Assembly (NCBI RefSeq): GCF_006345805.1 | Contig: NC_043006.1 | Coordinates: 36,890,001-36,954,000, forward strand | Source of the DNA: Octopus sinensis | Lineage: Eukaryota | DNA: 64,000 bases | Direction of reading: 5' to 3' | Shown: positions 12,362 to 47,533 of the stretch, piece after piece | Position numbering within the stretch: position 1 is the stretch's first letter | Layout of the letters: every line of letters starts with the position of its first letter | Position numbers and translations under genes: made by a program | Notes under the pieces: generated by a model | What the model saw: only the letters and a program-made list of their open reading frames with translations | The model's database searches: none | Told to the model about the DNA's origin: nothing

Positions 12362-15356
12362 AGGGGAAGAGAGAAAGAAAGAGAAAAAAGGGGTTTGATC
12401 TGCATTTAACAATAAAGCAACAAAATATAGAAGAGTTTTGCAGCAAAGGGAGATAACAGATATAACTCTCAACTTCCAAAATTTGAGATTCTCTTCTAAG
12501 TTTCAGTCAGTGGACTATAGGTGGCCATATTGAGAGGACATTGCTTCCTAGGGTATATTTGAGTACATCAACAACACTCCTTGTTTTATTAGTTTCAGAA
12601 GAATAACATGCAAAGTGGGTTTGGAGAAACTGATTACCAAAGGATTATGCTGTGTGCTTGAGAAGAAGACCCATCAAGCGAAGTCAAATTGCAGTCAAAG
12701 CAGATACCGGTGTCACACAATGGGCACCTGTGCTAGTGGCACGTAAAAGCACCCACTACACTCTTGGAGTGGTTGGCATTAGGAAGGGCATCCAGCTGTA
12801 GAAACCATGCCAAATCAGACTGGAGTCTGGTGCACTCTCTCAGCTTACCAGCCCTGGTCAAACTGTTCAACCCATGCCAGCCAGCATGGACAACGGATGT
12901 TAAATGATGATGATGACGACGATGCACAGAATGTCATCATTGCTTTAACGTCTGCTTTTCCATGCTTCAAAGGTTCACAGTTTATTGATGCCCTTCTCGT
13001 TACTAACTCTCACCTGTTTCCAAACAAGGTAATATTTTCCCAAGGTCAGAAATCTTTTTTGCAATTTGCAGAATATTGGAATTGAATGATTCTACTTGTA
13101 TGACATTGACAACCATTTTACAACTATTGCACAATGTCAAAACAAGGAAACACACACACAACAGGCTTCTCTCAGTTTCCATATTACTATTATTATTTTT
13201 ATTATTTAAAAAGGCAGTGAGCTGGCAGAATTGTTAGTACACCAGGCAAAATAATCCAGAATCCTTGTCTGGCACCGGATCTCGATCCCAAAATATAATC
13301 AGTTCATGCCAGTCTTGAGGCCAAACATCCCTGAAAGTTTCAATCGAATACATCCAGCGGTTCTTGAGATATCTTGTCCACAGACAAGCAAAGAAACCAA
13401 CAAACAAACACAACTGAAAACAATACCTCTGCCTTAGCAAGAGCGGAAGTAATAATAATAATATTTGTTTAGGGACTCAGTCAATTAGATCAACCCCAGT
13501 ATGCAACTGGTACTTAATTTATTGACCCCGAAAGGATGAAAGGCAAAGTCGACCTTTGTGGAATTTGAACCCAGAACGTAAAGATGGGTGAAATACTGCT
13601 AAGCATTTTGCCTGGTGTACTAATCTTGGGATTGCATCTAGAAAGTTCCCCTTTGAGACACAAGCCAAGCAAGGTTGTTTATGGAAGACCAGCAGTTGCC
13701 CATGCATACCAACCTCCCCTCTTTATGCCACCAATGTTATCTAAGAGAAAGGCACCAGTGATGTCACAACTCATTTCTACAGCTGAGTGAACTGGAACAA
13801 CATGAAATAAAGAATCTTGCTCAAGAATACAACAGTCTGGTCTGGGAACTGAACCCACTAGCTTGTGATTGTGAGCCCAATGCTCCAACCACTAAGCCGT
13901 GCACCTTCATATATACATATACTCACCAAAATGGTATTTTCCTGAAGGATCTCTTGAGTAATGTTATTCCTTAGTGTGTGTGTAGCTTGGAGATCAGGAG
14001 TGGGGATCTCTCCATATCGAAACACTGCTTCTTTGCTTTGAGCAGTCACAGCTCTGGCACTGTGGATATGTGGTTAGAATGTTACAGGAAAGAAGTGCAA
14101 GATGGTTGGATAAGATCTGTCATTTCGGTTGGTTGTACTTGGGGATCTAGCTGGAAAGTATAATGACGGGTTGCATCTAGGACTCTACCCCTACGACCCT
14201 CCCAGGAATAGGGAATATTTGTGTTTGCTTTTACCCTAAACCACTTGAAAACCAATGTTGGTTTGTTAATGCCCCTATTATTTAGTGGTTTGGCATGAGA
14301 GACCAATGGAATAAGTACTACATGTTAAAAAAATAAACACTGGGCTTGATTTGTTTGACTATACCCTTCAAGGCAGTGCCCCAGCATGGTCACAGCCCAA
14401 TGACTGAAACAAGTAATAGATAAAAGAAAATCAAATAATGATTGGTTAAGAATGGAACCTCAAGAAGTCAGGAAGTTGGAGAGGAACAGGAAATACATAA
14501 ACATAAAAAAAAAAAAAAACGAAAACAACAACAAAATAAAGCAGATAATACACACGTATAAGCAGATTAAAACAATGGAACAACAATGAAATTTACTACA
14601 TTTCATAATAGAAACATAAAAAAATGAGGGAGGAAGTAAATATATTTATGTATATCTATTTCCCCAAACCCTCACATTCTTTTAAAACTAAACAAATTTT
14701 GATTGTGAAATGATTTAAAATCATAAAAATTTTGACAAGGGACACAACCCATTCTATTATGTGGAGACTAACTTTAAAAATATTGCTTTCTACTATAGGT
14801 ACAAAGCTTGGGGGAGCGGGGTGGCTAGTTCATAACATTGACCTCAATTCTGAACTGGTACTTATTTTATTGACCCTGAATTTGAAAGGCAAAGTCAACC
14901 TTGATGTAATTTGAACTTGGAATGTAAAAACAGATGAAATACCTCTAAGCAATTCATATGGTATGCTAATAATTCTGCAGCTTGCCACCTTGCTAACTCC
15001 TGAAATACAGGGTGTGGCAAAAGTAAAGCCCTTTTTTGGATTTCAGTTTTCTAGTTTCTAATGGAGTTTCTTTTCTACTTCCTAAAACTTCTGCAATTTT
15101 TTTCATTAGTTTATTATTTGTTTCTTTAAGTAAGGCAATAAATTTGTGTTCAATAAAAAATTACTTAATAAACATTTATATATATATATGTAGGTGCAGG
15201 AGCGGCTGTGTGGTAAGAATGCCATACATTTCCAATGTTTTGTGTGTGAGTGTGTATGATTATGATGGTCTGTTATCACTCTAAAAAATCAAGTGAATAG
15301 AGAAAAAAAGAACACAAATAAACAAACAACCTTTTCTAGCTTGTCTAGAGACATAC

Positions 15357-15487
15357 CTGAGATATAACATCACCATTGAAGCGCCGAACTTGATATAGAT
15401 GTCGGTACCTCGATTGTTGCTGTTCTCGTTTCTGCTTTGCTCGTATTCTTTGTAGGTTCACTTTGCGGCTTCGTTTGTTCTGTAAAA
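15357..15487 (-). CDS. TMEM198: TMEM198 coding exon (LQNKRSRKVNLQRIRAKQKREQQQSRYRHLYQVRRFNGDVISQ)
   Basis: Acceptor ttttgcag|TT, donor CAG|GTATGT; 131 nt, phase 1-0; basic stretch and RRFNGDV motif as in vertebrate TMEM198 (KRFNGDVLSP); missed by the ORF track. Confidence 0.93.
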
Positions 15488-18447: not shown

Positions 18448-20980
18448 ACACACACACACACGCGCGCGCACACAATTATTATTCATAGCAGACGGAAATT
18501 ACAGAGTATCTTGAGAGCTGAGAGTTTCATGCATTAGCGCTTACCTCTTGGCTCTTGCATTACTCTGTAACTTCCGCAAATTATTAATAATAAAAAATTA
18601 TGTTTTGAGTTCCATTTTCCTGTTTGCATCACCAAACCTCTGTGTGTGTGTGTGTATGTATATGTGTGTGTGCGTGTGTATATGTGTGTGTGTGTGTATA
18701 TATATATATTCTTTTACTTCTTTCAGTCATTAAACTGCAGCCATGCTGGAGCACCGCCTTTAGTCAAGCAAATCGACTCCAGGACCTATTCTTTGTAAGC
18801 CTAGTTTTTGCCGAACTGCTAAGTTACAGGGACGCAAACACACCAGCATCAGTTGTCAAACACACACACACACACACATTGTTAATAAAATATAGTCAAT
18901 GAGTCTACAGTATACTGAATTTTGAATAAGTGCTGTTGGTAAGGAAATGTCTCAAACCTTAAAGGTATTTAGAGATTTAAAGATTTAATAAGAGTGATTA
19001 TATATCATAAAGAGCAGGAAAAATTACATTTATGGATTACATATTGATAAGAATGGAATTATGGGACTTCTATCTATACACAGCTATTATGGATTACTAC
19101 AAAGGATTTTACCATGGGTTTATATTTTTTCTAAATTTTTAGCCCTATGCACATCTGTACCAATAACTTTTTTAAACAACTTTATCACATGTTTTTAAAT
19201 AGCATCTCCCTCATTCGATTAACTACACAGAAATTCATCCTTTTCTCTGACGTGGATAATGATTATCAATTTTGGATTTCATTTTGAAGGGCAATACAGT
19301 CATGAAACGATAAGTAGGACTGAACCAGGAACAATGTGGTTGGTAAGCAAGCTACTTACCACACAGCCACAAATGTGTCTATACATACACATATATATAC
19401 ACACACACACACTCACATATACATATAATCATCATAATCTAATGTTTGTTGTCCATGTATTGGACATTTCAACAGGAGCTGGTAAAGCCAGGGACCACAC
19501 CAGGCTCCATTACCTGTTTTGGCGTGGTTTCTACAGCTGGATGCCTATCCTAAATACCAACCACTTTACGGAATGCACTGAGTCCTTTTTACAAGGCCCC
19601 AGCATCAGTGCTTTTTAGCATTAACCCTTACTGTGCAAAAGCTGAGCATTCACAGTTCTGTGCATGAGCACTTGAGATATGGGGACCAAATTACCTCGTT
19701 TTTGATAGTGAGATACTATCTGGAACTCTCCACATTTCATATGAGATAATATGCATATTATATTTTTTTTACTGGCCAACAGAAAGAGGTTGTATATTTT
19801 TAACATGCTAAATCATGAGCCTGTTGCATGTACTTAATCAGCACAGTGAGATTTAAGGGATTTCATCCTTTGCTACTCATCCAATATGTATATATATATA
19901 TATATATATGATTGATGTTTTGGACTAATAGGTATAAGTTGATTGGTGTGTTTAAGTTTTGAGCAGAGCACTGGCACAGTTTGGGCAACCTGTTTTCATC
20001 TGCAGTGTCAGTTGGGGTAATTATATTAATTAAGTAAAGAGAAGATGGTAGTTTGCACTACTTAATATACTTTTATATACATATACACACACATACATAT
20101 ACGTGGATCAAAACTGTTTGATTCAAATCCCTTGGTACTCTCAGTTTCAAGTGTTGTGCTAATCTTTGGCCAATGGCCAATGCCCAAAGCTTAGTGCCAC
20201 ACATGAAACTCAGAGTACCAAGGAGTCTGAATCAAACTGCTTTCATCCATGCTTTTAACTTTCAATAATGTGCCCTTCGACACACACAAACACACACATA
20301 TATATAGATACTTAATTTATTGTCTGTAACCAGGTAGTGTCTGGCTTCAAATCAATATGTCTGCTGTTATACTACCATTCATCTATTTTAACCCTTTAGC
20401 ATTTAATCTAGTCATAGTTGGCCCTAAACATTCTATCTGGTTCATAATAAAATTGATGAGATCCAACCTTTCACACCTACCCTTCAATGTCATTCTAAAA
20501 ATATACAAACACATCTTTGAAATCTTGAAGCTACAAGATTATGCCTGATAAATAAGTATTGCATTTGACAGAGTAATCAGAATGCTGAAGGATTAAAAGA
20601 TACACGATACACAATAAATGGCCAGCTAGAATTCAAGGAGATAACAATTAGGTGTGGAGGTGAGGAGACAGAATGCAATAATTATATGAATAAATTAATT
20701 AAATCACCAATAAAAAAAAAAAAAATCAATATAAAAATCAGAACCACATGAGTGAGTGCAAAGGTTAAAACAAGGAACGATTAGTCAGAAATCTCCAATA
20801 TCAGTTCATGCCTTTTCAGTGTTAACAACATGCTTTTGAAGTTTGCTATTTTATATAAGATTTTAACCATCACCTTGTTACAAAGAGCACAAAAGATACT
20901 ACTTCCTACAAACAGAGCAGTGTGTGCTCCACAGCCATGCTTACAAATGACCTCCTGTTATTGTCAGAAAGAGTAAAGTT

Positions 20981-23900
20981 CTAATAATAAAAAGCACTGA
21001 CAAACGATCTTTGGTCTGTACTGGCATATGAATCCTGGCTGCAATCAGTGCCAGAAAATGACCCTTTGAGATAATTAGTTCTGGCAAATAATTCTTGATC
21101 AAAGTCAGTCCCAGCAAAAGATTTCTGGTCATAATCAGTCCCAGAATTAGACCTCTTGTCAACGTCTGTACCAGAATAAGACCCCTGCTTAACGTCTGTA
21201 CCACAATTAGACTCCTGATCAATTTCTGTACCAGAATTAGACCTGTCGTCAATGTCTGTGCCAGAGTAAGACCCATTATCAACGTCTGTGCCAGAGTAAG
21301 ACCTGTCATCAACGTCTGTGTCAGAGTAAGACCTCCGGTTAAGGTCTGTGCCAGAAATAGACCCCTGATCAACGTCGGTACCTGAATCAGACCCTTGATC
21401 AACGTCAGTACCAGAATAAGATCCTTGATCAATGTCTGTACCTGAGTAAGATCCCTGATCAACGTCTGTATCTGAGTAAGACCCCTGATCAACGTCTGTA
21501 CCAGAGTAAGAGCTCTGGTTAACATCTGTACAAGAATAAGACCCCTGGTCAATGGCACTACCAGAATAAGAACTCTGGTCAACATTTGTACCTGAATAAG
21601 ATCCCTGGTCAACGTCAGTACCAGAATAAGATCCCTGATCAACATCTGTGCCAGAATAAGATCCCTGATCAACATCTGTGCCAGAATAAGAACTCTGGTC
21701 AATAACTGAACCAGAATAAGAACTCTGGTCAACATCTGTACCAGAATAAGAACTCCGGTCAACGTCTGTACCAGAATAAGAACTCTGGTCAACGACTGAA
21801 CCAGAATAAGAACTCTGGTCAACGACTGTACCAGAATAAGAACTCTGGTCAACGTCTGTACCAGAATAAGAACTCTGGTCAACGTCTGTACCAGAATAAG
21901 ACCCCCGATCATCGTCTGTGCCAGAATAAGACCTCTGATCACCGTCTGTGCCAGAATAAGAACTCTGGTCAACGACTGTACCAGAATAAGAACTCTGGTC
22001 AACGTCTGTACCAGAATAAGAAATCTGGTCAACGTCTGTACCAGAATATGACCCCTGATCATCGTCTGAACCAGAATAAGAACTCTGGTCAACCTCTGTA
22101 TCAGAATAAGAACTCCGGTCAACGTCTGTACCAGAATAAGAACTCTGGTCAACAACTGAACCAGAATAAGAACTCTGGTCAACGACTGTACCAGAATAAG
22201 AACTCTGGTCAACGTCTGTACCAGAATAAGAACTCTGGTCAACGTCTGTACCAGAATATGACCCCCGATCATCGTCTGAACCAGAATAAGAACTCTGGTC
22301 AACCTCTGTATCAGAATAAGAACTCCGGTCAACGTCTGTACCAGAATAAGAACTCTGGTCAACAACTGAACCAGAATAAGAACTCTGGTCAACGTCTGTA
22401 CCAGAATAAGACCCCCGATCATCGTCTGTGCCAGAATAAGACCTCTGATCACCGTATGTACCAGAATAAGAACTCTGGTCAACGTTGGCACCAGAATAAG
22501 AACTCTGGTCAACGTCGGCACCAAAATAAGAACTCTGGTCAACGCCTGTATCAGAATAAGACTCCTGATCATCGTCTGTGCCAGAATAAGAACTCTGATC
22601 ACCGTCTGTACCAGAATAAGAACTCTGGTCAACGTTGGCACCAAAATAAGATCCCTGGTCAACGTATGTACCAGAATAAGACCCCTGATCATCGTTTGTG
22701 CCAGAATAAGACCTCTGATCACCGTCTGTACCAGAATAAGAAGTCTGGTCAACGTCGGCACCAGAATAAGAACTCTGGTCAACGTTGGCACCAAAATAAG
22801 ATCCCTGGTCAACGTCTGTACCAGAATAAGACCCCTGATCATCGTTTGTGCCAGAATAAGACCTCTGATCACCGTCTGTACCAGAATAAGAACTCTGGTC
22901 AACGTCGGCACCAGAATAAGAACTCTGGTCAACGTCGGCACCAAAATAAGAACTCTGGTCAACGTCTGTACCAGAATATGACCTCCGATCAACGTCTGTG
23001 CCAGAATAAGACCCCTGATCAACGTCTGTACCAGAATAAGACTTCTGATCAATGTTTGTACTAGAATAAGACCCCTGATGAACGTCTGTACCAGAATAAG
23101 ACCCCCGATCAACGTCTGTACCAGAATAAGACCCCTGATCAACGTCTGTACCAGAATAAGACTCCTGATCAACGTTTGTACCAGAATAAGAACTCTGGTC
23201 AACATGTGTACCAAAATAAGACCTTTGGTCAACGTTTGTACCAGAATAAGATCCTTCATCAACGTCAGTGCCGGAATAAGATCTCCAATCAACATTGTTG
23301 CTAGAATAAGATCTCTGATTAACGTCTGTATCAGAATAAGAACCCTGCTCAACGTCTGTACCCGAATAAGACCCCCTATCAACATTTTTACCAGTATTAG
23401 ACCTCTGGTCATAATCAGCCTTAGCACGTAACCTCTGGTCAAAGTCAATCCTCAAATTGGATTTCTTGTCAAAATCTGTCTCAAACGATTCTGCCCTACT
23501 GAGAGATCCCTGCCCACTGCCCATTACAACAAACGACATCTGGTCACCATCTGTTCCAAAAACTGATGCCTGGTCAAACTCTACTCCAGGAAAGGAGCCA
23601 TGGTTGCTTTCTGTCCCAGCAAATGAATCTTGGTTATGTCTTTTTCCAACAAGTGACTCTGAGTCAACTTCAGTGCCACCAATGGAACCTGTCACAGCAG
23701 ATGAGTCTTGATTGAAAGCTAACCTGGGAAATGAATTCATACTGAGGTGTGCTCTTGGAAAAACCTCACGAGATATATCTACTCTTACAGGTGACTCCTT
23801 TACATAGCCTGTTGCCCCAAACAAACCCTGGGTGATGCTTGCCCTTGCAAGGGATGCTTCTACCCCATTTTTTCCAACAAGTGATTTAAAAGTATTGATG

Positions 23901-24154
23901 GTTGCAGTATAAGAACCTTGTGGTGTGTATATCTTTGAGAGTGATTTGCTGTAGTATTTTTCCCATCTGAAAACCAAGGTGTCTTCGTTTGTTCTGGTAA
24001 TGAGCCAAGCTCTGTTCCTTGTTGACCAAAATGACGGAATATTCGACAACACCAAAATCCTGATCAAAAAAAGGCAGAAGTATATAATACTGAAAAGTGT
24101 CAAGCTGGCAGAATCTGTGTTGGACAAAATGCTTAGCTGCATTTCTTCTGGCAC
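20981..24154 (-). CDS. Intronic ~1000-aa ORF, Ser/Asp/Gly/Tyr/Thr-rich decapeptide repeat protein (GTDVDQSSYS)n; true 5' end uncertain (acceptor at 24059, ATGs at 24142 and 23740)
   Basis: 1057 open codons, including ~230 codons outside the homogeneous array; degenerate 10-aa periodicity persists at both ends; no frameshifting indel. Confidence 0.7.
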   Translation of the reverse strand: MPEEMQLSILSNTDSASLTLFSIIYFCLFLIRILVLSNIPSFWSTRNRAWLITRTNEDTLVFRWEKYYSKSLSKIYTPQGSYTATINTFKSLVGKNGVEASLARASITQGLFGATGYVKESPVRVDISREVFPRAHLSMNSFPRLAFNQDSSAVTGSIGGTEVDSESLVGKRHNQDSFAGTESNHGSFPGVEFDQASVFGTDGDQMSFVVMGSGQGSLSRAESFETDFDKKSNLRIDFDQRLRAKADYDQRSNTGKNVDRGSYSGTDVEQGSYSDTDVNQRSYSSNNVDWRSYSGTDVDEGSYSGTNVDQRSYFGTHVDQSSYSGTNVDQESYSGTDVDQGSYSGTDVDRGSYSGTDVHQGSYSSTNIDQKSYSGTDVDQGSYSGTDVDRRSYSGTDVDQSSYFGADVDQSSYSGADVDQSSYSGTDGDQRSYSGTNDDQGSYSGTDVDQGSYFGANVDQSSYSGADVDQTSYSGTDGDQRSYSGTNDDQGSYSGTYVDQGSYFGANVDQSSYSGTDGDQSSYSGTDDDQESYSDTGVDQSSYFGADVDQSSYSGANVDQSSYSGTYGDQRSYSGTDDDRGSYSGTDVDQSSYSGSVVDQSSYSGTDVDRSSYSDTEVDQSSYSGSDDDRGSYSGTDVDQSSYSGTDVDQSSYSGTVVDQSSYSGSVVDQSSYSGTDVDRSSYSDTEVDQSSYSGSDDDQGSYSGTDVDQISYSGTDVDQSSYSGTVVDQSSYSGTDGDQRSYSGTDDDRGSYSGTDVDQSSYSGTDVDQSSYSGTVVDQSSYSGSVVDQSSYSGTDVDRSSYSGTDVDQSSYSGSVIDQSSYSGTDVDQGSYSGTDVDQGSYSGTDVDQGSYSGTNVDQSSYSGSAIDQGSYSCTDVNQSSYSGTDVDQGSYSDTDVDQGSYSGTDIDQGSYSGTDVDQGSDSGTDVDQGSISGTDLNRRSYSDTDVDDRSYSGTDVDNGSYSGTDIDDRSNSGTEIDQESNCGTDVKQGSYSGTDVDKRSNSGTDYDQKSFAGTDFDQELFARTNYLKGSFSGTDCSQDSYASTDQRSFVSAFYY
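21051..23450. repeat. 30-bp tandem array, consensus (+) CCAGAATAAGAACTCTGGTCAACGTCTGTA, about 80 units
   Basis: Units stay in column register across consecutive 60-nt lines from ~21121 to ~23400. Confidence 0.98.
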
Positions 24155-24320
24155 TCTGGCATTCTGAGTTCAAATCCTGCCATGGTCAACTTTACCCTAA
24201 GTTCCTTCAAGATCAATAAAATAAAGTACCAGTCAAGTACTGGGGAAGGAATTGGATGTTGACGCAATCAGCTTGCTGCTCCCGCCCTCAAAATCTGCTG
24301 GCCTTGAATCTTGCAACAGA
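24095..24320 (+). mobile_element. SINE family B copy overlapping the first ~20 codons of the long repeat ORF (antisense)
   Basis: AAGCTGGCAGAATC...AAAATGCTTAG...TTCTGAGTTCAAATCCTGCC...AATAAAGTACCAGTCAAGTACTGGGG. Confidence 0.8.
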
Positions 24321-25282
24321 CTAGCATACTGTTTAGGGGTACTGTTGCGATCTTGGTCACATATAGACCACAGAAACCAGGTAACTAGCCTGATGAATCC
24401 TTCCCTCCCCCAAATGGAAGCCCTAAACAACTTAGTTGCAGAGGTGTAGGGCTTAGTGGTTAGGGTGTTATGCTCATGATTGTAAGATTATTGTTTCAAT
24501 TCCTGGAACAGGAGATGTATTGTGTTCTTGAGCAAGACACTTCATTTCACACTGCTCCAGTCCACTCAGCTGGCCAAAATGAGTAACCCTGTGATGGATC
24601 AGTGTCCCATCCAGGGAGGAATATGTGTGTGTGTGTCAGAGAAACCAGCCCTGTGTTCCTCATAAAGTAATGTAGACTAAGCAACTCAAAAGTTTGTTTA
24701 GTCATCTCTGATTATGACAGACGTAGGGGTGGTTTGGGGGGGGGGGGGTTCGAGGTGGAGACATTATCATGTTTGCTTCTTTCTTGGCCATATAATTCAT
24801 AATTGGTCCATTATATCTGCTTTCACCCACACAGTTTCTTTCAGATGAAGCCATGCCCAGGATTCCAGCAGCACTGTTGAGAGACATTAACAGTTGTATC
24901 ATTCATATTTTACACTTGTTTCAATCCCTAGACTGTGGCTGTGCTGGGGCACCACCTTAAGAGGTTTTAGTCAAACGAATTGACTGCAGTATTGATTTTA
25001 TTGAGCCCTGCTACTTATTCTCAGTCTCTTTAGCCGAATTGCTAAGTTAAAGGAGAAAAATACAAACCAACACTGGTTAAGTAGTGGTGGTGGACAAACA
25101 CATACACATATATATACGACAGGCTTCCACTCAGTTTCCATTTACCAAATTCACTCACAAGGCATTTGGTTGTCCTGGGGCTATAGTAGGAGACACCTGC
25201 CTAAGGTGCTGTCTGGTGGAATTGAACCTGAAACCATGTGGTTTTGAAGCAAGCTTCTTAACCACATAACCATGCTTACACC

Positions 25283-25507
25283 CAGTGCCGTGGTGTAGGA
25301 GTCGTAGAGTCGGAGTTGGAAACAATTAAGGAGTAGCTAAAGTTGGAGTCGGTAAAACTATACCGACTCCGACTCACAATATCTTTACTGACATATAAGC
25401 CTACTCAAAGTACAAGCATATACATATACTTTATGAAATACGTAGACCACAATCACTTAATTACATAAAGAGGAGTTGGAGTTTTTTGTTTCGACTCCAC
25501 AGCCCTG
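25283..25507. mobile_element. hAT-like MITE with 8-bp TSD, inserted in a SINE end
   Basis: CAGTGCCGTGG...CCACAGCCCTG ends, GGAGTCGG sub-repeats, TSD CTTACACC/CTTACACT. Confidence 0.8.
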
Positions 25508-26249
25508 CTTACACTTATACATTTTTCTATTCTTTTGTTGGGGGCTGCCCTATTTTATGAAAGAAGTTTGATAGAAGTAAACTGTAATTTTAGTCTTACA
25601 TGAAAGCCATATTTAATAGTGACCTGCTTGCTGTTTAGACCTAACCGAGTAAACCTAAGATCAAAAATGGCCCGGTATAGTGTAGGTTCAGTCCCACTGT
25701 GTAGCCACTTGGGCAAATGACTTCTAATATACCATGAGGCTGACCAAAGCCTAGAGAGTGGATTTGGTAGAGAGAAACCCATCATATATATACATACATA
25801 CATATATTGTGTGTTTGTGTCTGTCCCCCACCACTGCTTGATAACCAGTGCTGGTGTATCTATGTCCCAGTAACTTAGTGGTTTGGCAAAAAAAAAAAAA
25901 GCAAAAAATACTGGAGTCAATTTATTTAACCAAAAAAATTCTTCCAGAAGAATGGGGGCAGTCAAATGACTGAAACAAGTAAAAGATGAAAGATGGGTAC
26001 TGAAAATTTGGCTGCTACTTCTAGCAAGTCAAATGACCACGTAGAGGATTGGTTAATGGAGGCAATAGTAATTACTAAATAGCTACACATACCTCTGCTG
26101 CACAGCTCAAAAGAACCTCTTGCTGTTGTTGTACAGGAACTAGTGACTTTTTAGTGAATGTCATATAGACACAGCATTTAACTCTTTAACATTCAGATTA
26201 CAGTCAAACGTAATGCCTATTTATTCACACTGTTTTGAATTAATCAGGT

Positions 26250-26550
26250 GATGGCATGTGGCTTGCTGGTTAGGGTATTCAGCTTACAACCATAAAATCA
26301 TAGGTTTGATTCCCGGCGGTGCACTGTGTCCTTGAGCAAGACACTTTATTTGACGTTGCTCCAGTCCACTCAGCTGGCAAAAATGAGTTGTACCTGTAAT
26401 TCAAAGGGTCAGTCTTGTCACATTCCGCATCATGCTGAATCTCCCTGAGAACTAGGTTAAGTGTATGTATGTCTGTGGAGTACTCAGTCACATGCATGTT
26501 AATTTCACAAGCAGGCTGTTCCATTGATCAGATCAAATGGAATTCTCGTG
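26250..26550 (+). mobile_element. tRNA-derived SINE family C (GTCCTTGAGCAAGACAC domain), nested in a TTAA MITE; other copies at ~24440-24650, 27640-27835(-), 40520-40725(-), 10725-10845
   Basis: GTGGCTT..TGGTTAGGGTATTC...GTTTGATTCCCGG head; flanked by the duplicated MITE sequence TTTTGAATTAAT. Confidence 0.75.
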
Positions 26551-29129
26551 TGCTAGATTTTGAATTAATTATGCATTAACTTGTAGCTTTGAAATTCTGA
26601 TGATGTGATGGTTTATTCTTAGAGTGGCATTGTCAGATAGGTATGAGAGACTGGATCTGACCTCTCATAAAACAAGTAGGTATGGCTGGTTTAAATGCTA
26701 AAAGGTTAAAAGATCACTGAATTTCAGTGAGCCCTACCACCAATGCCATCACCATACACTTCCCCTTCAAATTTCTCCTTTTTTGAAGTTGTGGTTACAA
26801 TTGTACTAAATTTAAAAGGAGAAGCAACAAAGATATTCCCCCACTAGTGTAATTTCAAGTAAAAACCAGTAAAACACTTTAGTATTTAAACTGGTCATAT
26901 ACAGCCAAAATATCCTTATCTGTTTTATGTTCAATCTGGTCAGATCTGACCTCTCAAACTTACCCTACAATGCCATTCTAAAAATAAACAATCACATCAC
27001 TGAGATCTTGAAGCTGTGAGATAATGCAAGATTTGAAAGAATTATCTGAATGCAAAAGGGTTAATATTGGGAATTGACAACTAAAATTTTCAATGCAACA
27101 GACTCACTGCAGGCCTGAAACCAATACATAACAATCACCTGGGGTGGTTTGAGTCCCATCACTGGCCTGTTTGCACTATACTTTTTCAAACTGGTGATTA
27201 TAATACCTTATACAGTTTTGGTTTAATATTGGTGTAGGCATGACTCTGTGGTAAGAAGTTTGCTTCCCAACCACATGATTTCGTGTTCAGTTCCACTGCA
27301 TGGCACTTTGTGTGAGTGTATTCAACTACATGGCCCTCAACAGAGCCCACAGGTAACCACAACAAATACAAAATAGATTGTTGTTGGTTAGTCAAAGAAC
27401 AGCTTTAAGTAAGCAGACCTATAATCAAAGATATTCCAGCCATGACTATCCCATCTTTTTGTGTTGTGTTTTCTACTGCAGTCATTGAGTATTTTAGGTT
27501 ATGTTATCCAACATGTAGTCTATTATAATCATATTCACACATCACTGTATCCACCAGATTATTGGATGTTTGTTACACACCGCGAGTTACAATACACTTT
27601 CCTTGGATTGTTGTATTGTTCAAATGATGGTACCCCACTGGCTTAGCGGGCAAGCCAATGATCTCCCTGAATGGAACACTTACCTGTCACAGGGTTACCC
27701 ATTTAAAGCCAAGTGAACTGGAGCAAGCTGAAATGAAGTGTTCTGCTCAAGAACACAATACACTGCTCAATCCAGGAATTGAACCCACAGTCACTAGACC
27801 ATGAGTACAACATCCTAACCACTAGGCTACACGCCTTCACATATTCACATCTAAAATCCAGCACTTGACTTTTTTCCTTATTTTACAGACTTCATAAGGA
27901 TGAAAGGCAAAGCCAACTTCTGATTTGAGCTCAGAAATATAAAGGGCCATTACTAAATACTTGTCTTTTTTTAAAAACCAGTGGAGTGTGAACCGAGAGA
28001 CTTGCTTACTATTTCTAACAGAAAAAGCATCCATATAGAAGTTCCTTGTTGATTTAAAATTACTTCTTCTTTATTGGTGGATATGTAAAAAAATAAAAAA
28101 AATAGAAAAAGAAACCCCATTGGTACTAGATTTCTAGCTAAAGGAAGGGCAAAGTAAAATACTTTATCATTCACACACACACATAGAGGGCCAGGTCTCT
28201 TGGGATTAGCATTCTGACACCATGTGTAACTCCCTAGATTTGACATATCACAAAATATCAGTTAGAGAGAAGAGGAGGGGTGAGGAAGAAAGAAATAGGG
28301 AAAGAGGGGGAGATTCAAACAGAAAGTTTTACCAGTGTTTCTGCTTTTATATGACTGGTTTTTTTTTTCCTTTTTTATTTTAAAATCTTTTTTCAAAGAA
28401 TCGCTCCCTTTTCCTTCACATGCAAAACAACAGGGCAGGATAAACTATTTGCAGAAGAAAAACAAATCTGGAAAATGCGAAGACAAAGGAGGGGGAAGAG
28501 GAAGTTAAGTGTTCAAATTTGTGGCAAAAACAACAGGCAACGGCCATATTTTCATTTATGTTGCAAAGAGAAACAAAACACTACTGCTACTACTACAAAA
28601 ATAAAATCAAATAAAAACTAAAATCTTAAAACAACTACAACAACAATAACATCAAGAACAAGCAGGGAAATTTACAAAGTAAACATAAGTAAAACATTTA
28701 ACTCCATTTCTGAAGGCAGCTGAATATTAATTATGTCTCCCCTCTAATATCTACAGAAACATTCCTTCAGCCTACCCCACTAACAACAATAACGACAATC
28801 ACTACACAATTTTAAACCCTGGATGGCCTTGTAGTTAAGAAGCTTTCTTGCCAGCCATCTGGTCTCCCAGGTTCAATCCTGCTGTGTGGTACCTTGGACA
28901 AGCCTCTTGGGCAAGTGTGGAAAACTGGGTGCTAAAATGATGAAGATAATAATATAAGAGCATATGTGGCTTTTTGGTAAGAAGTGTGCTTCCCAACCAC
29001 ATAGTTTTGGGTTCATTTTCACTGTGTGGGACCTTAGGCAAATGTCTCCTACTATAGTCTTGGGCTGACCCTTGTGAGTGGATTTGGTAGTCAGAAACTA
29101 GAAGTAATCCCAATGTCTCTCTCTCACTT

Positions 29130-29183
<54 letters not shown>

Positions 29184-29376
29184 CTTTTATTTGTTTCAGT
29201 CATTTGACTGCAGCTATGTTGGAGCACTTACCTTTAGTCGAACAAAATTGACACTAGGACTTATTCTTTGTAAGCCTAGTACTTATTCTATCAGTCTCTT
29301 TCGCCAAACCGCAAGTTATGGGGACGTAAACACACCAACAGCAGTTGTCAAGCGATGGTGGTGGGGACAAATACAG

Positions 29377-29456
<80 letters not shown>

Positions 29457-29842
29457 TTGTGTTTGTTCTCCGCTGGTGTTGGTTTGCTTACATCCCTGTA
29501 ACTTAGTGGTTCAGCCTAAGAGACTAATAATATATGTTCCAGGCTTGAAAAGAAAATATGTACAGGGATCGATTTGTTTAACCAAACCTTCAAGGCAGTG
29601 CCCCAGCATAGCCACAGTCCAATGACTGAAGCAGGTAAAGAATAATACCCAATTTAATTCGCACAAATTATAAAAAAATACAACTTATTTAGGCTGTGTG
29701 ATAAGTTGCTTGCTTACCAACCACATTGCTCCAGGTTCAGTCCCACTTTGTGACACCTTAGGCAAGTGTCTTCTACTATAGCCTTGGGCCAATGAAAGCC
29801 TTGTGAGTGGATTTGGTAAATGGAAACTGAAAGAAGCCCATC

Positions 29843-29911
<69 letters not shown>

Positions 29912-30499
29912 TTATTTGTGTGACTGTGTTTGTCCCCTCACCATCACTTGACAACCAATGCTTGTGTGTTTACGTCCTTGTAACTTAGCAGTTCAGCAAA
30001 AGAGACCAAAAGAATAAGTCCTGGGTTTGATTTGTTCAGCTAAAAGGCAGTGCTTCAGCATATATATATATTTTATTTTTCCTAGACTAGTGAAGATATA
30101 ACAAGCCTGTGATATAAATGTTTATGACTCCAGCATGGTCACTACATACTGGTTGAATCCAATAAGATAATGTTTTTCTCTCCAATTTTAGCACAAGGCT
30201 AGCAGATTTGCAGGGACAAGGCAAGTCATTTACATTGACCTCAGTATTCGACCGATACTTTATTTTATTGACCCTAAAGGGATGAAAGGTAAAGTGGACC
30301 TCTTGGGATTTGAACTCAGAACATAAAATGCCAGATGAAATACTGCTGAGCACTTTGTCCAAGTGTTCACAATTCTGCCAGTTTATTTGCCTTAAACCAA
30401 TAAAATAATAAACAGTAAAATATGTTTTAAAATTAGGGTCATCAGGGACATGCTTTACAGACCAATGTGATCAATAGATCACAGACCAATTCAATAGAT

Positions 30500-31349
30500 C
30501 AATGTTACTCAACCATTTTTTGTTTATTAACCCCCTTTGAATCCTATTTTACTCTGCAGGATTCTCATTCCCATTCAATGTTCTAAAAAAGTCCCATTAT
30601 ACTTTTATAATTAATTATTACTAGGAATTGTATTTTACATGTTTCAGCCCTAAGGCTGTAACTAATTTATTGGATATAAACATTAACACTAAAACCTTAT
30701 ATGGAATGGAACCCCAGGGGTCACGTGGACCCTGGTTGAGAACCATTGATATAAAGCGATCAGTGATACATAACCTTTTGCATCAGGTGGTTCATAAAAT
30801 TCACAAAAAAATACTTCACAGATCACCAAATATACAGGAGATTTTAAGTGCATTATGCAACACTGTAGGACATAAAAACTTGCCACAGGTCACCATAACT
30901 TTGGTGTGGATCATGTTACGCAGCACTGCAATAGATTAATGCAGAAAATGATGTGTACTAGACCAGAGTAGCAAGACACAAGAGGTGTCTGCTCACTCAA
31001 TGTGATCAGAGGCATGGTTAATGCATGATAAGAAATGTATTGGCTGGACCAGTACAGTCAGACATTATTCAAGCCAGTCAATTTCTTGAGCTGTGCTGGT
31101 AGGTTAAGCATATTTGTAAACTTAGATCAGTGGTTCTCAGCCGGGTCCATGTAAGATTTTATTGTTAAAATTTATGAGCAATAAACTTATTATACTTCTA
31201 CAATATGCGAAATAATTTAATTTTTCTTTATACAGTTCCTAATATTAAATTATGAAAATATAACAGGATTTTTCAAAGCATCAAGTGACTATGGGGGGTC
31301 CCACTTCAATAAAATAAGAATCAAAGGCAAAAATTGTTGAGAACCACTG
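30500..31349. mobile_element. Two oppositely oriented hAT/Charlie-like MITEs (~30500-30748, ~31128-31349); further copies at ~45523-45785 and ~60635-60790
   Basis: CAGTGGTTCTCA...TGAGAACCACTG type termini and shared internal AT-rich body. Confidence 0.7.
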
Positions 31350-31592
31350 AGACAGATAAACCTGGATGTGGTTCACTCACCACACTCATTTACATCAAAC
31401 ACTAAGCTACTCCTCGAAAACTTATGAATAGAATCGTTTAACACACAAAGCTGCACAAAAAAAGAGTTAAATAAATCATAAACGAAGAGAAAATATTTAC
31501 ATTAAAAACATTCAAATTGTCACAACAGAAGCAGGAAAAGAAGCTACAATTACATCATCAACAGAGGCACAAAGGATTTTGGAGGAAAAGGC

Positions 31593-31642
<50 letters not shown>

Positions 31643-31756
31643 ATATATACACATACATACATGAATGTATGTATGTATATATAAATATATAATTGAGGTT
31701 GCATGCATCATGCTACTAGGATAAACACATGTGATGCAATCAAACCAAAGTCTTAC

Positions 31757-31819
31757 CATCAACTTCATCAGAGCTCGGAGACCGATATTTGGCAGATGAG
31801 ACATTATTTCTATGTACTC
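31757..31819 (-). CDS. TMEM198: Probable 63-nt symmetric cassette exon of TMEM198 (R-VHRNNVSSAKYRSPSSDEVD)
   Basis: Polypyrimidine acceptor tttctttactctttag|GA, donor ATG|GTAAGA, length divisible by 3, open in phase 1 (the phase of the surrounding intron), non-repetitive sequence. Confidence 0.6.
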
Positions 31820-32678
31820 CTAAAGAGTAAAGAAATGCAATAATACTTACACAAATAACAAAAATTTAGAAAAAAAAGTGAAAATACAATTTCTCATAGA
31901 ATACATTTTTTTCTCGCAATCCAATAACATTCTGCAAAGCCAACATTTTGAAGAACTCACTCGTTAACAAATGTTTTCAATTAACCCTTCAAATACCAAA
32001 ACTCTATTTTTGTTAACGAGCATCCCTGCCATTACATCTTTAAATTCACTCAGAAACTTTTCTCTCTTATTCAACACTTTTTGGAATTGGTTCGCAAAGT
32101 TCTTGATGTGAATTTGTGTATTGAAACAGATTGTGTTGCCTCTCAGGAGGTTCATTATGTCATTACTAAACACACACATTGTTAACATTTCACCATTATG
32201 AATTTCTATTTCTCATACTGCCATTTAAAATTTTAAATCATTAATGAGACACTAATTACTTAAAAAAAGAAATTTGATAAATTAATATCTTCCAGACTGT
32301 AATTTATCTTATTTTTGTGTTTTACAAGACATTACAATCAGTTGAACCTCTGATGCTTTTCAGGAGACATTCCTTCCTATACACATTCCCACTTAACATA
32401 TGAAAGAGTCTATGCGGTTGCTTGATCTGCTAGAAACAGTAATCAACTCTCCTTTAAAATCAAGTGTCTTTGAAAAAGGCACATTAAATGATGTGATCCT
32501 AGGTGCACCATGCCCCCATCAGCATCAGAAAAGGTTGAGGTAGTCAGAGTTGGAATAAATGAGATCAGCTCAATTGGGACTGGAGTGAGGCTAAGCTAGA
32601 TATATATATATATCGTTCCTTTTTCGTTTAATGTCCACTTTAGCGGTGTACATGCACTTTGTTCTCTTATATGTAAGT

Positions 32679-32724
<46 letters not shown>

Positions 32725-32908
32725 GGAGCTTGCTTCCTAGCTACATGGTTTCGGGTTCAGTCCCACTGCGTGGCACTTTGGGTAGGTGTCTTCCACTATA
32801 GCCCCGATCTGACCGGAGCTTTGTGATTGAATTCGGTAGGTAGAAGTTACTGCCGTGTGTGTATGTGGGTGTATAGCTGCTTAGTGCCTCTCCGAAAGAG
32901 AGAGAGGG

Positions 32909-32941
<33 letters not shown>

Positions 32942-33454
32942 ATATATCACACACACACACACACACACTCTTATATGTAATATATATATATGTATATATA
33001 ATATATAAGAGAGAGTGAGTGAGAGAAAGAAATCTGTTTTCCAACCATGTGGGCTTTGGGGTCACTCCTCAGAAGGGGAATTTTGGGCAAGTATGCTCTA
33101 CTACAACTTGAGCAGACCAAAGCTTTGTGGAGTGGATTTGGTAGATGGAAACTGAAAGAAACCTGTCCAATATATCATCATCATCAGAATCTAACAAATC
33201 CACTCCACAAAGCTGTGGCTAGCCCAAGGCAATAGTAGAAGACATTTGCTCAAGGAGCCATTGCAGCAGGACTGAACCCAAAAGTACATGGATGGGAAAC
33301 AAGCTTCTTAACCACCCAGCCACATCTGCAACTATCGTATGCACAAAAATGTGGTGGTAGTGGTGGTGGTGGGTGGTTCTCTGCTAGAATTTAATTGTTT
33401 GGTCAACTGAACTGCTACTGCTCAGCAAGTTAGCATATAAACCTTTAAAGGAAG

Positions 33455-33915
33455 TACAGGTCATCATTGACTTACGACCAATCAACTTTATGACGATTGG
33501 TGTGCCAGTTTCCATTAGCAATAATAAATAGACCAGTTGAAATCTAATGAGTTTAATTTCTTAGAAATTAACCTGTCTATGGATGATGTCAGCTAACAAA
33601 CACTTCCTCTAGGTTTGGTTATCAATTGCCACTGTGGTTATCCCAAGTGTTGGATGAATATCCTGTCACAGAGACGTTGAGGCAACCTCGTATTTGTTTA
33701 TAAGATGACTGTTTGAAACTCTGAAATTTTTGTTTAACACCAGTATAATAGTATAATACAGAATGCTGTGTGTGACTTTTACCTGAGAATGTACCTTAAG
33801 AATGTAAAAATATAAAACAAAGCTATGTATAGGCCTATAGGCCGACTTATGACCAGATCGACTAATGACCAGTCAGTCGAAACCAATTGTGGTCATAAGT
33901 TGATGACAACCTGTA
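33455..33915. mobile_element. pogo/Tigger-like MITE
   Basis: TACAGGTCATCATTGACTTACGACCA ... TGGTCATAAGTTGATGACAACCTGTA inverted ends with TA flanks. Confidence 0.75.
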
Positions 33916-36900
33916 ATCCTCAAGCAGAATCATTGTCATACTGTATGTGACAAAGCTGGATCTTTTGAATTACAGGTACAATCCATCAGATGAGCTTCCT
34001 TACAGTTTCCATCTTCCCAATTTCACTCAGAAGGTTTGGGTTGATCCAAGGTTATTGTAAAAAAAAACACTTGTCCAAGACACCATACGTTGAGATTGAA
34101 CCTGAGATCTTATGATTGCAAACTGAACTTCTTAATCATCCAGCCATGCTACCTACAACAGCGAACTACCACTAACTGCACCAGCTGACCAAGTGTTAGG
34201 GTTGGGCTGTAATTTCACAAATCGGCTGGAAAGAAAGGAGTGGAAATATTCCATGACCTGTTCAGACCCACCAAGATGAATGGGACTGATGTATCTTATA
34301 GGAAGCCTGTGAATATCTAACAATCAATAGATGCAAAAAAGGGGAAAAAAAAACCTTGTGAGTGAAGAGAGGAGTGGGTCGGGGTGGAGATGTCAGAGAC
34401 TCTAACAGGGTCAGCTGCACTTAAAAACATCCTGACAGAACTTGTAACAGGCAGAGCTGTTAATCTTTAAAGTAGTCAAAACAGCCACCTGCTAAACAGA
34501 TGTTTTTTTCATAATATTCATCATGTAACATCCACCTTTCCATGCCCGCATGGGTCAGATAGAATTTGTTGAGGCAGATTTTCCATGAAAGGATGCCCTT
34601 CCTCACCCATTGCATGGTAAGTAGCTTGCTTCCCAACCACATGGTTCTGTGTTCAGTCCCACTGCATGTCACCTTGGGGGGGCAAGTGTCTTCTACTATA
34701 GCCTTTTATTTTTTATTTGTTTCAGTCATTTGACTGCAGCCATGCTGGAGCAACACCTTGAAGGGTTTTAGTTGAATGAACTGAGATTGGTATTTATTCA
34801 ATTAGTCTCTTTTGCTGAACTGCTAAGTTACAGGAACATAAACAAACCAACATTGTTTGTCTAACAGTGGTAGGGACAAAAACAAATATACCCCCCCACA
34901 CACATAATGATGAGCTTCTTTGAGTTTTCTTCCACCAAATCTACACACAAGACTTTGGTTGGCCCAAGGTTATAATAGAAGACACTTGGCCAAGGTTCCA
35001 TGTAGTGGGACTAAACACAAGACCACATGGTTGGGAAACAGGCCTCCTGACCATGCAGTTATGCCTGTGCCCATAAACGTTATCTGTTAGAAGTGTGCTA
35101 GGATCCCAAAATACATTGGATTGTTCCTAAATATTTGGTATGTCTGTGAGTGTGAACCGTAGAACTATGTCATTCATGTAGAGCTGATTGAGGTTATGCA
35201 CATAAGAATAAGGACCTTAACCTCACTTTGAGGTCAATTGGTGCAATTAGCAGCTTGCTGTCATAGGCAAGGCAGCATGGCCGAATGGTTTAAGTTCATT
35301 CTGAACAATACAGTAGAAACTCAAACTATGAGTGCCCCATTGTACAAGTAATTTTGCTGTACAAGCCAAGACGTGCAAATTTTTGTCTTGAAGTATGAGC
35401 AGAAATCCACAGTATGAGCACACAGTACATTCCATCTTTAAGGTGATTCAGTTAATAAAACCACTTTTGTATTCTCTTTTCTATAATTGTCACTTTACTT
35501 GTAATTACACCTTTTCTGTTTTAAAATCCATAAAAAATTATTTTTGAGTGGTTTTGTGGGGCTGGAATGGATTAATATTTTAGTTAAATTCAATGGGGTA
35601 AATTGATTTGTAAAATGAATAAATAGTAAGACAAGCTCGGTCATGGAATGAATTAAACTCGTACTGCGAGGTATCACTATAATCATGTATATAATGAAAA
35701 AGAAGAATTCTCAGATGTGTTGGTTTCAATCAAAAAGGTGGTTAATGCTGAGGAGTTCTAGGGAACAAGTTTAATTGCCTCATATGTTTCAATAAAAAGG
35801 TGCAGGCATGGCTACGAAGTTTGCTTTCAATCACAAGGTTTTGGGTTCAGCCCTGCTGTGTGGCACTTTGGGCAAGTGTCTTCTATCACATCTGCAGGCC
35901 AACCAAATCCTTTTGAGTGGATTTGGTAAATGGAAATGTGTGTGTGTGAGTGTATGTGGGTATGTTTGTGTCATCTTGAGTTGATGTCATGTGGTAGTTG
36001 TAAATGAGCGTGTTTTGAAACAAGTGAGGGTTGGTGATAGAAAAGAACCTTCAGCCATAGAAAATCTGCCTCAATAAATTACATCTGACCCATGCAAGCG
36101 TGAAAAGTGAACATTAAAAAAATGATGATGATGAAGATTATGTAGTTTGCGTGTGTAGGCAAAGTTTTTTGTTTTGACTCCACAACCCTGCATTTAAAGG
36201 TCTCAACAGAAGGTGCAAAACTAGAAACAGCTTTACCCCAGGTCAGCTCTCCTTCAGTTGATTCTGATTACAGACATTCCATCTGGTGTACTTTTTCTTA
36301 AGGCATAGTCTATCTAAGAGTACATTATCCACTATGTACTTCTTTGTTATTTAGTTGAGACCAAATCTTCTTATTGTATATCAGGCTCTATCTCCATTGT
36401 CTAATGTAACCTTCTTTATCTAAAACTGTAGGGTGGGGTTTAAATGATATCTGACTGCTATGTCTAGTACATCAAATGACTACCATACAACTGCTTCACA
36501 TAGTTAGCATACAACCTTTTCTAAATTTTCGAGGCAGTCCAAATCGTGACCATCCAGTCTTGTTGCACTCTGAAAACTACATTAGCCAATGTATTTCTTC
36601 CATTTTATTTTAAACCACAATGATGACTTTTGAGGGCGCTCTGGGTGCTATTTCTAGCAGGTCTAACAATCATGTAGAGGACACCTTATTTATTTGTCTG
36701 TTATGAATGTTGTGTGCCAGTGTTGTGCAATATCATAGGGGGGTGTCGGGGGGTGGGTGGGCACGATGGAGAGGATATTGTTGAAAAGGCAGGGTAGGCA
36801 TTCATATGCATGTATACGTAATTACACACACACACACGAAGAGTCAGCTGGCGTTTTTTTTTTTTATTCAACATTAATAAATAACCGAACATAAAGTAAA

Positions 36901-37809
36901 ATTGAATATCAATTGAGCATCTAGTAACAGCTGTGGGTGATAGTGGGAGGAGACAGAACAATAGGCAAATCCAATTTCCTCCCTCCCACCACCACCACCA
37001 CCAATGCTGCTGCTGCTACTGCAGTACAAAAGTATTACCACCACCACTACTACTACCACCATTATAAAAATGGTGTCGGTCTGTTGAAGAAGGAAAATTG
37101 TTATCATCATGATTTTAGTGTCTACTTTTCCATGCTTGCATGGGTCAGAGGCCGGTTTTTTGGAGTGGAGGTTTCTATAGTCAGATGCCATTCTTGATGC
37201 CAATCCTCATTTGTTTCCAAGCAAAGTAATAACCTACCAGTCTATTGACCAACAAACAGTTCAGACATGGTTGCATTGAGAACAAGAACCAAATGGACTC
37301 GTCAGTAAGACCCAGCCAAAGATGAAGAAGATATGAATTCATTCACTCACACACATACACCACTTTTCCATGCTTGCATGGGTTGGACAATTTACCAAGA
37401 CAGATTTTTCATCGGCTGGATGCTCTTCCTGTCACCAACCCTCATCTGTTTCCAAAGTAATACTTCCCCATAGGCAGACATGTTCTCTGCAGATGATTGG
37501 AAATGAATGACAATCATTTACATCAAGCTCATGATATTCAGAAGATGCAAACACATACACACTAATACACAGTTATATACACACACATATATAGATATAT
37601 GAAAGGCAGCTACTTTTAGCTTCCAGCAATCAATTTCACTTGCAAGGCTTTGGTTGGCTTGGTGCTCTCATTGAAGACCCTTGCCCAAGTTTCCACACAG
37701 TGGGACAGAACCTAAAAACATGTGGTTGGAAAATAAACTTGTTAACCACATGGTCATACCTATGCCTTGTCTGAGTTTCATATGTTAGTTACACAAAGTA
37801 ATAATAATA

Positions 37810-38320
37810 ATGCCCTGATGCAGTACCAGGCAGTGGCTCTGATTGGAAGAGTTATCATGTACATGTTTTGTCTTGGTATAAAAGATGGGCTACAACAAAT
37901 ATTCTGCTCAATACCACAGATTTGCTTGTCAGTTGCTTGACCTTAACTAGCTGAGCATGTCCCTTGGTGGCTGACGATATGTGCATCTCTGATCATAAGC
38001 AGAAGTAGTGGGGGAAGAATTCTTTGGAGTTTGGATAATTTACCTTTGGAAACATGGGTGTTTTGTTCAACATCCTTAAACAACCCTTATTTAGGGACTT
38101 TTTGAGCAGGATGGGCTACTCAACCTGAAGAAAATTCTAACTGGGCGCCACATGCAAGGTCATGCGCTGTGTATCTTGATACGAGATCACCATGTTGCGC
38201 ATATATGGTTGTGATGCATGTCCCCAATGTACCCTTATCAGATGGGTAGTCATGATGGGTATACTGGGTTTCATATATTTTACCCCAATGTCACATTGAT
38301 GGCATGCATTGCTCTCTCAA
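37810..38320. mobile_element. Probable non-LTR retrotransposon fragment between (AAT)n tracts
   Basis: GC-richer, non-simple block bounded by AAT repeats, resembling a recalled abundant octopus LINE fragment; no intact ORF. Confidence 0.4.
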
Positions 38321-38329
38321 GATAATAAT

Positions 38330-41753: not shown

Positions 41754-42317
41754 TTTCGTGATGGTCTGCGCTCTGTCCTGTTATTCTCCACTGGGTCAAG
41801 GAGCCTACAAGGAAACAGAAAGGCCAGCAACCGAGAATCAGCCAGCTGTACCAACAGGGAGGGTCAGAATCCTCCACTTTGATACACTCCCACACATAGT
41901 TCACGATCAGGAATTTTTCTATAAAATAGTCCAGGCAAATCGCCATCAAGGCAGCACCAAAGACGCTTGTACCGAGAATGGTGCCTGCCTTTTGGAACTT
42001 GAGAGTCAGCAGCGCAAATAAAATACCAACACCAATGAGAACACCGATTGGTATCCATTTGTTGGCAATGTTATAGAACTGGTCCACTGTGACCAACACT
42101 CCGGTCGAGAGACCGACGCCAAAGTGGAATCCGGTCAGAAAAAGTCCAACATACTGGACCAACATGGTAATTAGTCCGCAGATTATGCCGGCACCCACTG
42201 CAATGCCAATGTTTGCTTCTTTCGGCAATACTGTCTCTTCTATACAAACTATATATACAACCACTGTGCCAAAGATGAAACCAGTTAAGAACATGACAGC
42301 CTTGAAGAATCGGTAAC
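41754..42317 (-). CDS. TMEM198: TMEM198 second coding exon, multi-TM DUF4203 core (GYRFFKAVMFLTG...WRITGQSADHHE)
   Basis: Acceptor ctttcag|GT at 42318/42317, donor GAA A|GTAAGT at 41754/41753; 564 nt, phase 1-1; Gly-rich hydrophobic helices, DYFIE and CWYSW motifs. Confidence 0.95.
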
Positions 42318-46508: not shown

Positions 46509-47328
46509 TGATGGCTTCTTTCAGTTTCCATCAAGCAAATCTGCTCGCAAGGAATTGATCAACCCAGGGCTATGGCAGAAGACACAAGCCCAAAGTGCCA
46601 TGCAGTGGGACTGAACCCAGAAACATTTGGTTGGGAAGAAACCTTCTCAACTGTACAGCCTCATCTTTACTTAAAATTGAAGAATAAAATCTGCAGGCAG
46701 AGTCTTGACTTACAGACAATGCCTTTGTGTTTGGGTGAGTTTGTATTATTGCTCCAGATCTTCTGTAGAGAAAGTTCTATTGTGTCCTCTTTTTGTAGGG
46801 GCTGATGATGAAGAAGGATCAAGTGATCCAAGTGGAAGGAGCTGTCAGAAGAAGTAGTCCAAAGGAGATGTAGAAAGCAGTGATGAAGGATATCTGGATA
46901 AAAGGAGCTCAAGAAGATAACAAAGGATTGCAACAAATCTCAAAATCCAGTGGTGGAGGATATTTGTCATACCCATGGGTAAATGGACATATGGTGATGG
47001 TGATGAAGGAAGATGAATAAAACAGGGGTGGGGGTGCATGCACAAGGTATAAGAATGAGTCAGCTAGGGAAATGGAAAGAAGTGAGAATGGAAGCTTAAG
47101 AACAAAAACCCAAACCGAAGCAGAATGCGTGTGAGAGAGGGCATAGGGGGAAAGAGAGTAAGAGGTAGAAGGAGAGAGCAAGAGAGAGGGTGAGAGTGTA
47201 AGAGAAAGAGAGAGAGAAAGACAGCAAGAAAGAGACAGAGCAAAGGAAAGAGAGAGAGAACAAGAAAAACAAGAAGAAAAAGGATAGGCAAATAAAGGGA
47301 CAAGATAAGGGTCAACTAGTAAACTTAC

Positions 47329-47533
47329 CAAAGAATGTGTAGACAATTCCAAAGAGAAAACACATGGAACATATCACAGCTGGAATGACTGTGTAGTCGT
47401 AATCAATCTTGGCACAGCGTGCAGGCCTCCGACTTGGGCTCATGCTTATATTGTTTGGGAACACTGTGGTTCTAAACATTAATTGTGGAAGTGGGTGGTT
47501 TACGTGTGGTGGTGACAGCTCTGATGTCTCCAT
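47329..47533 (-). CDS. TMEM198: TMEM198 first coding exon (METSEL...CAKIDYDYTVIPAVICSMCFLFGIVYTFFG)
   Basis: ATG at 47533; hydrophobic TM1 of TMEM198 type; ends TTT G|GTAAGT (phase 1) and joins the next exon to give FFGYRFFKAVMFLTG, matching the recalled TMEM198 motif FGYRCFKAVLFLTG. Confidence 0.93.

Follow-up and report, generated by a model that had tools for sequence, protein, structure and literature searches.

An acidic decapeptide-repeat open frame within an octopus TMEM198 intron as a candidate alternative last exon

In the 64,000-nucleotide stretch of the Octopus sinensis genome analyzed here (the window), an intron of TMEM198 contains, on the coding strand of that gene, a long open reading frame composed largely of decapeptide repeats. 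We consider it about an even prospect that this frame serves octopus TMEM198 as an alternative last exon missed by annotation, exchanging the short basic tail of the protein for ~1026 acidic residues. The splice to 24059 would start either at the TMEM198 exon 41755 or at the cassette exon at 31757, the latter being the slightly better candidate, and by arithmetic the product would measure 1282 aa, or 1303 aa with the cassette. The features on which this reading draws are collected in Table 1.

Table 1. Positions in the window of TMEM198 exons and of the elements of the repeat-bearing open frame
Feature	Position	Strand	Basis or remark
TMEM198 first coding exon	47327..47533	-	tblastn with protein P0123
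TMEM198 transmembrane-domain exon	41755..42317	-	PF13886, E 4.9e-37; phase-1 donor; candidate upstream partner
TMEM198 63-nt cassette exon	31757..31819	-	In the intron of the repeat; phase-1 donor, last base G; possible upstream partner
Dispersed (SINE-like) repeat	24100..24245	-	blastn: 18 matches besides this one within the window; the originally predicted GTG start and the ORF's first ATG lie in it
Polypyrimidine tract and AG acceptor	24060..24089	-	14/17 pyrimidines, like the annotated cassette exon; corresponds to the hydrophobic stretch of the ORF
Proposed alternative last exon, coding part	20981..24059	-	Acceptor; end of X2 alignment at 24060; extra base in 4/4 runs; ~1025 codons after the split codon if the base is real
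Interval where the window lacks one base present in the runs	23867..24037	.	Contigs of 4/4 runs; candidate homopolymers at 24031, 23973, 23961, 23891, 23873
Degenerate decapeptide units	23375..23947	-	~51% identity to core letters; stop-free in the ORF frame only
Core array	21005..23374	-	79 units, 63 distinct as DNA; pattern xSYSGTDVDQ
Possible 3' untranslated part	20321..20980	-	Motif scan only: ATTAAA at 20407, AATAAA at 20321; GT donor-like site at 20944
TMEM198 exon that normally follows (basic cytoplasmic tail)	15356..15487	-	Would be replaced by the candidate exon

The host gene was assigned from the match of Pfam family PF13886 to the transmembrane-domain exon, and 187 aa of the TMEM198 encoded in the window are 100% identical to Octopus sinensis TMEM198. 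Further 3' exons lie downstream of 15356, and the 3' end of the gene varies among isoforms; the alternative 3' exons of TMEM198 isoforms X1/X3 map to 7810-7905 and 611-667 (minus strand), and a matching alternative tail occurs in the cephalopod-like protein P0131. The cassette exon is present in Argonauta and cuttlefish proteins as well. The candidate exon appeared in no annotated isoform among the best 120 of 140 TMEM198 relatives and 21 cluster members.

The original prediction had described a 1057-codon ORF on the sense strand of the intron, with ~80 units of GTDVDQSSYS that diverge toward the ends while keeping the frame and a 10-aa rhythm, and with SLVGK occurring twice in the 'unique' N-terminal part. 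The ORF is indeed present: its GTG start at 24154 falls within a stop-to-stop open frame of 1062 codons (minus strand, 24169-20981) that sits between the exons 31757 and 15487. The array is there too, the approximate count giving way to 84 units that keep a precise 30-nt register over 23494-21004, without a frame-breaking indel, and to 77.1 copies of 30 nt (21099-23411, 83% matches) by Tandem Repeats Finder. Likewise, the divergent units hold their rhythm, which extends to ~23947: the autocorrelation of the DNA peaks at lags of 30, 60, and 90, and the two register shifts in this degenerate part are each a multiple of 3. SLVGK recurs as an exact 16-nt repeat. Both the non-repeat part and the exact unit pattern were found at a single locus in the 2.72-Gb genome (G000). 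If the exon is real, the gradient from half-decayed to homogeneous units documents how a coding repeat expanded at its own locus.

The whole array can also be read without a stop in a second frame of this strand, so that openness of the core is by itself weak evidence for coding. This frame (20941-23451, minus strand, 836 codons) terminates at the GT donor-like site at 20944; considered as coding, it was rejected as a by-product, with a pN/pS of 0.99 and no NCBIfam family. Its openness over 836 aa is nevertheless what might be expected of an intronic minisatellite, non-coding or formerly coding and now decaying, that undergoes occasional cryptic splicing and yields no functional protein. Other arrays of the genome with open frames on both strands, the lack of a protein on record in the searches made, and the contigs of sequencing run X1, which cover intron and ORF alike, all speak for the same explanation. 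A neutral minisatellite should show no frame preference in its substitutions, however, whereas among the distinct units the ORF frame has a pN/pS of 0.51, against 0.99 and 1.23 for the remaining frames. In simulations on a tree of the 63 distinct 30-nt units, which ignore gene conversion, five neutral models reached the observed pN/pS of 0.53 in 0, 6, 5, 5, and 24 of 250 runs, the last of these counting in favor of the minisatellite; stop-free runs numbered 2, 3, 4, 6, and 14 of 250. The half-decayed flank argues against it as well. Over 191 codons its three frames contain 0, 10, and 19 stops, with the ORF frame being the open one; none of 20000 shuffles matched this, and when 17 degenerate units were decayed neutrally to the observed 51% identity, 43 and 44 of 20000 trials (~0.2%) kept the frame free of stops. 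The unbroken register of the 84 units and the shifts by multiples of 3 point the same way. The degenerate units showed no significant conservation by codon position (p 0.26). The frame-specific pN/pS, the neutral simulations, and the stop-free decayed flank support purifying selection that favors the ORF frame only, as the original prediction of selection on the protein had it, and we regard the minisatellite as unlikely, if still a serious contender.

The start of the ORF has to be placed differently. Its first ~37 codons are most likely intron, because they comprise part of a dispersed repeat and a polypyrimidine tract with an AG acceptor; codons 24-37 are the tract in translation, with the AG at 24061-24060. 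The GTG at 24154, inside the repeat and upstream of the acceptor, is therefore probably not the true start. Contigs pile up very deeply in the bin 24007-24195, contig depth being uninformative on expression level. Elsewhere in the window, a 135-aa ORF fragment at 48543-48950 (plus strand) presumably resembles the C terminus of a Tc1/mariner-type transposase. The CAG acceptor at 24060 is canonical and belongs to 11 sites that pass a simple rule in the 26-kb intron, the annotated cassette included. From this acceptor, 65 codons in TMEM198 phase are stop-free, the longest such run among the 11 candidates; all three frames are open over 24059-23890. An exact 14-nt match connects the 5' part of the new exon (23983-23996) with the normal next TMEM198 exon (15469-15482, minus strand); its score was reached in 0 of 300 shuffles, its frame differs from the proposed one, and it represents either chance or the trace of an exon duplication.

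Possibly, the repeat belongs to a separate gene nested on the same strand, as first proposed, with its own promoter and either an unfound phase-1 coding exon in the intron or initiation at Met 23740. Such a gene would account for a repeat unlike any TMEM198 tail among the relatives compared, and it would suit an acceptor whose partner exon we only infer. Yet the start named in the original prediction is upstream of that acceptor, inside the dispersed repeat; the repeat path has no Met from the acceptor to 23740, and initiation there would leave ~7 degenerate units untranslated although they are stop-free. By eye, the ORF list over 24170-41800 held no convincing upstream coding exon but the TMEM198 cassette. 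Because the acceptor is good, no usable start lies upstream of the degenerate repeats, and the donor phase matches once an extra base is counted, a nested protein outside TMEM198 is less likely than the alternative exon, and we think it improbable.

The extra base comes from public sequencing runs. As the window is assembled, the acceptor requires two upstream bases to enter the repeat frame, but both TMEM198 donors supply one. We aligned to 23440-29100 the contigs of 4 runs, among 24 listed, which stem from 4 studies and carry 3 organism labels; 8 of the 24 carry part of the stretch, and the runs found are near-identical genomes only. All four (X1, X2, X4, and X8) have one base more than the window, with one gap each (contig/window lengths of 338/337, 223/222, 172/171, and 710/709 letters), and the gaps share the interval 23867-24037. 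Since the window is one base shorter than 4/4 runs, the frame upstream of this interval is probably different. Single-base loss at homopolymer runs is typical of long-read assemblies, and the missing base is a probable assembly error. Counting it, the acceptor requires one upstream base, which is the phase of both upstream TMEM198 donors, an agreement expected by chance in 1 case in 3. Wherever in the interval the base belongs, the frame is continuous, since the TMEM198-phase frame is open for its 65 codons.

The shorter sequence could instead be a true allele of the animal or species that was sequenced, in which case TMEM198 would acquire a 65-residue tail ending at ~23862, the repeat would go untranslated, and the long form would be a feature of relatives. 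The open 65 codons are compatible with this, and none of the runs listed covers every sequence word of the stretch (at best a fraction of 0.86), so that the reads behind the window are not among them. All four runs disagree with the window, however, and the interval holds several homopolymer runs, which makes a true allele quite improbable.

Record 9 of run X2 bears on the splice that the alternative last exon would require. We take this record to be RNA by guess, no run being recorded as RNA among the 24 listed. Its letters 16-238 align to 23839-24060, and 15 letters are unaligned, on a side that we assigned from our reading of the record numbering. An alignment that ends at 24060 with 15 loose letters fits a spliced transcript with a presumed partner exon; the end would agree with an upstream exon terminating in G, the cassette sharing 1 base and the 41755 exon 0. 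In run X1, a contig at 23781-24117 crosses the acceptor unspliced, and intronic contigs occur at 27787-27963 and 28648-28925. The absence of X2 and X4 contigs over 23440-23817 proves nothing either way.

Searches for relatives of the protein were largely empty. ORF residues 37-300 had no homologue among proteins of 584-1859 aa, nor did the 64-aa piece in TMEM198 phase among proteins of 113-2000 aa. HMMER returned 3 weak, repeat-only matches from 1.84 billion representatives (E 2e-5 to 4e-4), and the best score in the ESM Atlas, 0.78, lies under the quoted chance level. In the literature searched, with supplements and subscription journals outside its range, no paper contained both cephalopod and TMEM198 and none dealt with the candidate exon. 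Paralogues in the same genome were considered and dismissed: the 3 weakly matching loci inspected, of five, are unrelated repeat arrays. Long open frames did occur in 3/3 of the other 15- and 30-nt arrays inspected. One of these loci (L025, G000:C16:42976500-42981500) is a 15-nt array that encodes, on the plus strand, ~130 KDV(A/P)A pentads, interrupted by a frame change near its start; it could likewise represent a repeat exon affected by a one-base error of assembly. A second (L027, G000:C10280:11500-15000) is a 30-nt array of diverged units (TGTDMSSTAC-like and VHAVEDMSVP-like) that is open for ~350 codons on either strand, and a third (L026, G000:C8905:47500-51000) is a homogeneous 30-nt minisatellite immediately before an exon that, we assume, resembles a laminin-G domain.

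The decapeptide unit resolves into two pentads, 157 of which stand in register. Position 1 of the pentad is a small residue (G counted) in 87% of the 157, position 3 is hydrophobic (Tyr counted) in 89%, and charged residues fill 21/395 even unit positions vs 156/395 odd ones. NCBIfam profiles for PipB2 (E 2.9e-28) and HetL (E 4.4e-13) match in the ORF frame and in neither of the other two, both below the curated cut-offs and with E-values inflated by the repeat. Pfam scores fall short of their cut-offs too (Pentapeptide_4, 36.5 bits vs 38; Decapeptide, 24.4 vs 45). Sequence matches in the PDB were to DotG (E 1.7e-6) and to designed solenoids. Of five models computed from in-register array segments, one folded, as an all-beta structure of low confidence (pLDDT 53.4) that matches many beta-helices (Z 8-11, rmsd ~3); its scores of 8.9 to 6fls and 9.0 to SV2A are tied with those of other solenoids, and Foldseek gave nothing at E<=0.001. 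The single-sequence prediction for 23947-23195 showed no fold (pLDDT 34.2). The beta-solenoid of the original prediction hence stays plausible, as a weakly predicted, pentapeptide-like one. The likeness in composition to ice-nucleation or biomineral repeats, noted there without a claim of homology, fared worse: the 3 Pfam families found at E<=1 include no ice-nucleation repeat, and the candidate exon would join directly after the last helix, which would make the repeat a cytoplasmic tail and not a secreted biomineral or ice-nucleation protein.

In the literature, TMEM198 is described as a protein with seven helices and a cytoplasmic tail of ~110 aa (PMC8494741) and as a scaffold that recruits casein kinases to LRP6 (PMC8494741, PMC3278829, PMC12157921). 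The long isoform would keep the seven-helix anchor and trade a cytoplasmic tail of ~85-110 aa for the ~1026 acidic residues. Folded as proposed, these may form a long rod with one uncharged strand face of S/T/V/Q and another of D/Y/R, and the rod, tethered to the membrane, polyacidic, and open to phosphorylation, might serve as a spacer or as a decoy for the casein kinases reportedly recruited by TMEM198. The repeat tail contains 125 CK2-type motifs, an enrichment that is marginal against column shuffles (of 5000, 335 for CK2, 1330 for CK1, and 274 for both). As a spacer or decoy of this kind, the long isoform would, on this hypothesis, be likely to weaken LRP6 activation in some tissue or to redirect it. 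We put forward the complete picture tentatively, as one that is rather unlikely to hold in every part: a tissue-specific octopus isoform of TMEM198, built from a 30-nt repeat that expanded locally and missing from the protein sets searched, whose cytoplasmic Tyr/Val pentapeptide-type beta-solenoid of ~1000 residues and ~100 units retunes Wnt/LRP6 phosphorylation and is not descended from bacterial pentapeptide proteins. If the isoform is real, a highly conserved seven-helix Wnt scaffold has gained an octopus form almost four times the usual length, and its cytoplasmic tail would carry a pentapeptide-like solenoid, a situation rare among animals. It would also illustrate how annotation can overlook a 3-kb exon owing to a repeat and the loss of a single base.

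Among known systems, the Ser-Asp stalks of staphylococcal ClfA/Sdr proteins and the dentin-phosphoprotein-type acidic phosphoproteins are S/D-rich and very acidic, as is the repeat tail. The NCBIfam match to ClfA (E 2e-20) and the top Atlas score reflect this likeness, although the former is compositional and far below the cut-off; in contrast to the proposed tail, both groups are extracellular and have no fixed Tyr/Val rhythm. The pentapeptide-repeat set, with its right-handed quadrilateral (Rfr) beta-helix, for which we compared PipB2, HetL, Qnr, DotG/IcmE, and the SV2 luminal domain, comes closer in rhythm. According to PMC8145042, such proteins have at least 8 contiguous pentads and a consensus of L or F at pentad position 3. 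The 157 pentads and their small first residues agree with this family, but the third place is occupied by Y/V, and 17% of the pentads are charged at an inward position. Because L/F make up 3% at the third place, we do not file the array as a member, even though it may work like a pentapeptide-repeat protein; the best structural matches, likewise, are mixed solenoids (CAP, TBCC, SV2A, pectate lyases) and no single family. TMEM198 itself offers the remaining comparison. Its relatives (329-658 aa among the best 120 of 140) and its octopus isoforms (339-365 aa) carry no repeat tail, and the normal tail is basic, whereas the repeat tail has a net charge of -120. What the candidate exon shares with the known gene is its place, adjoining the last helix, where the cassette exon already sits.
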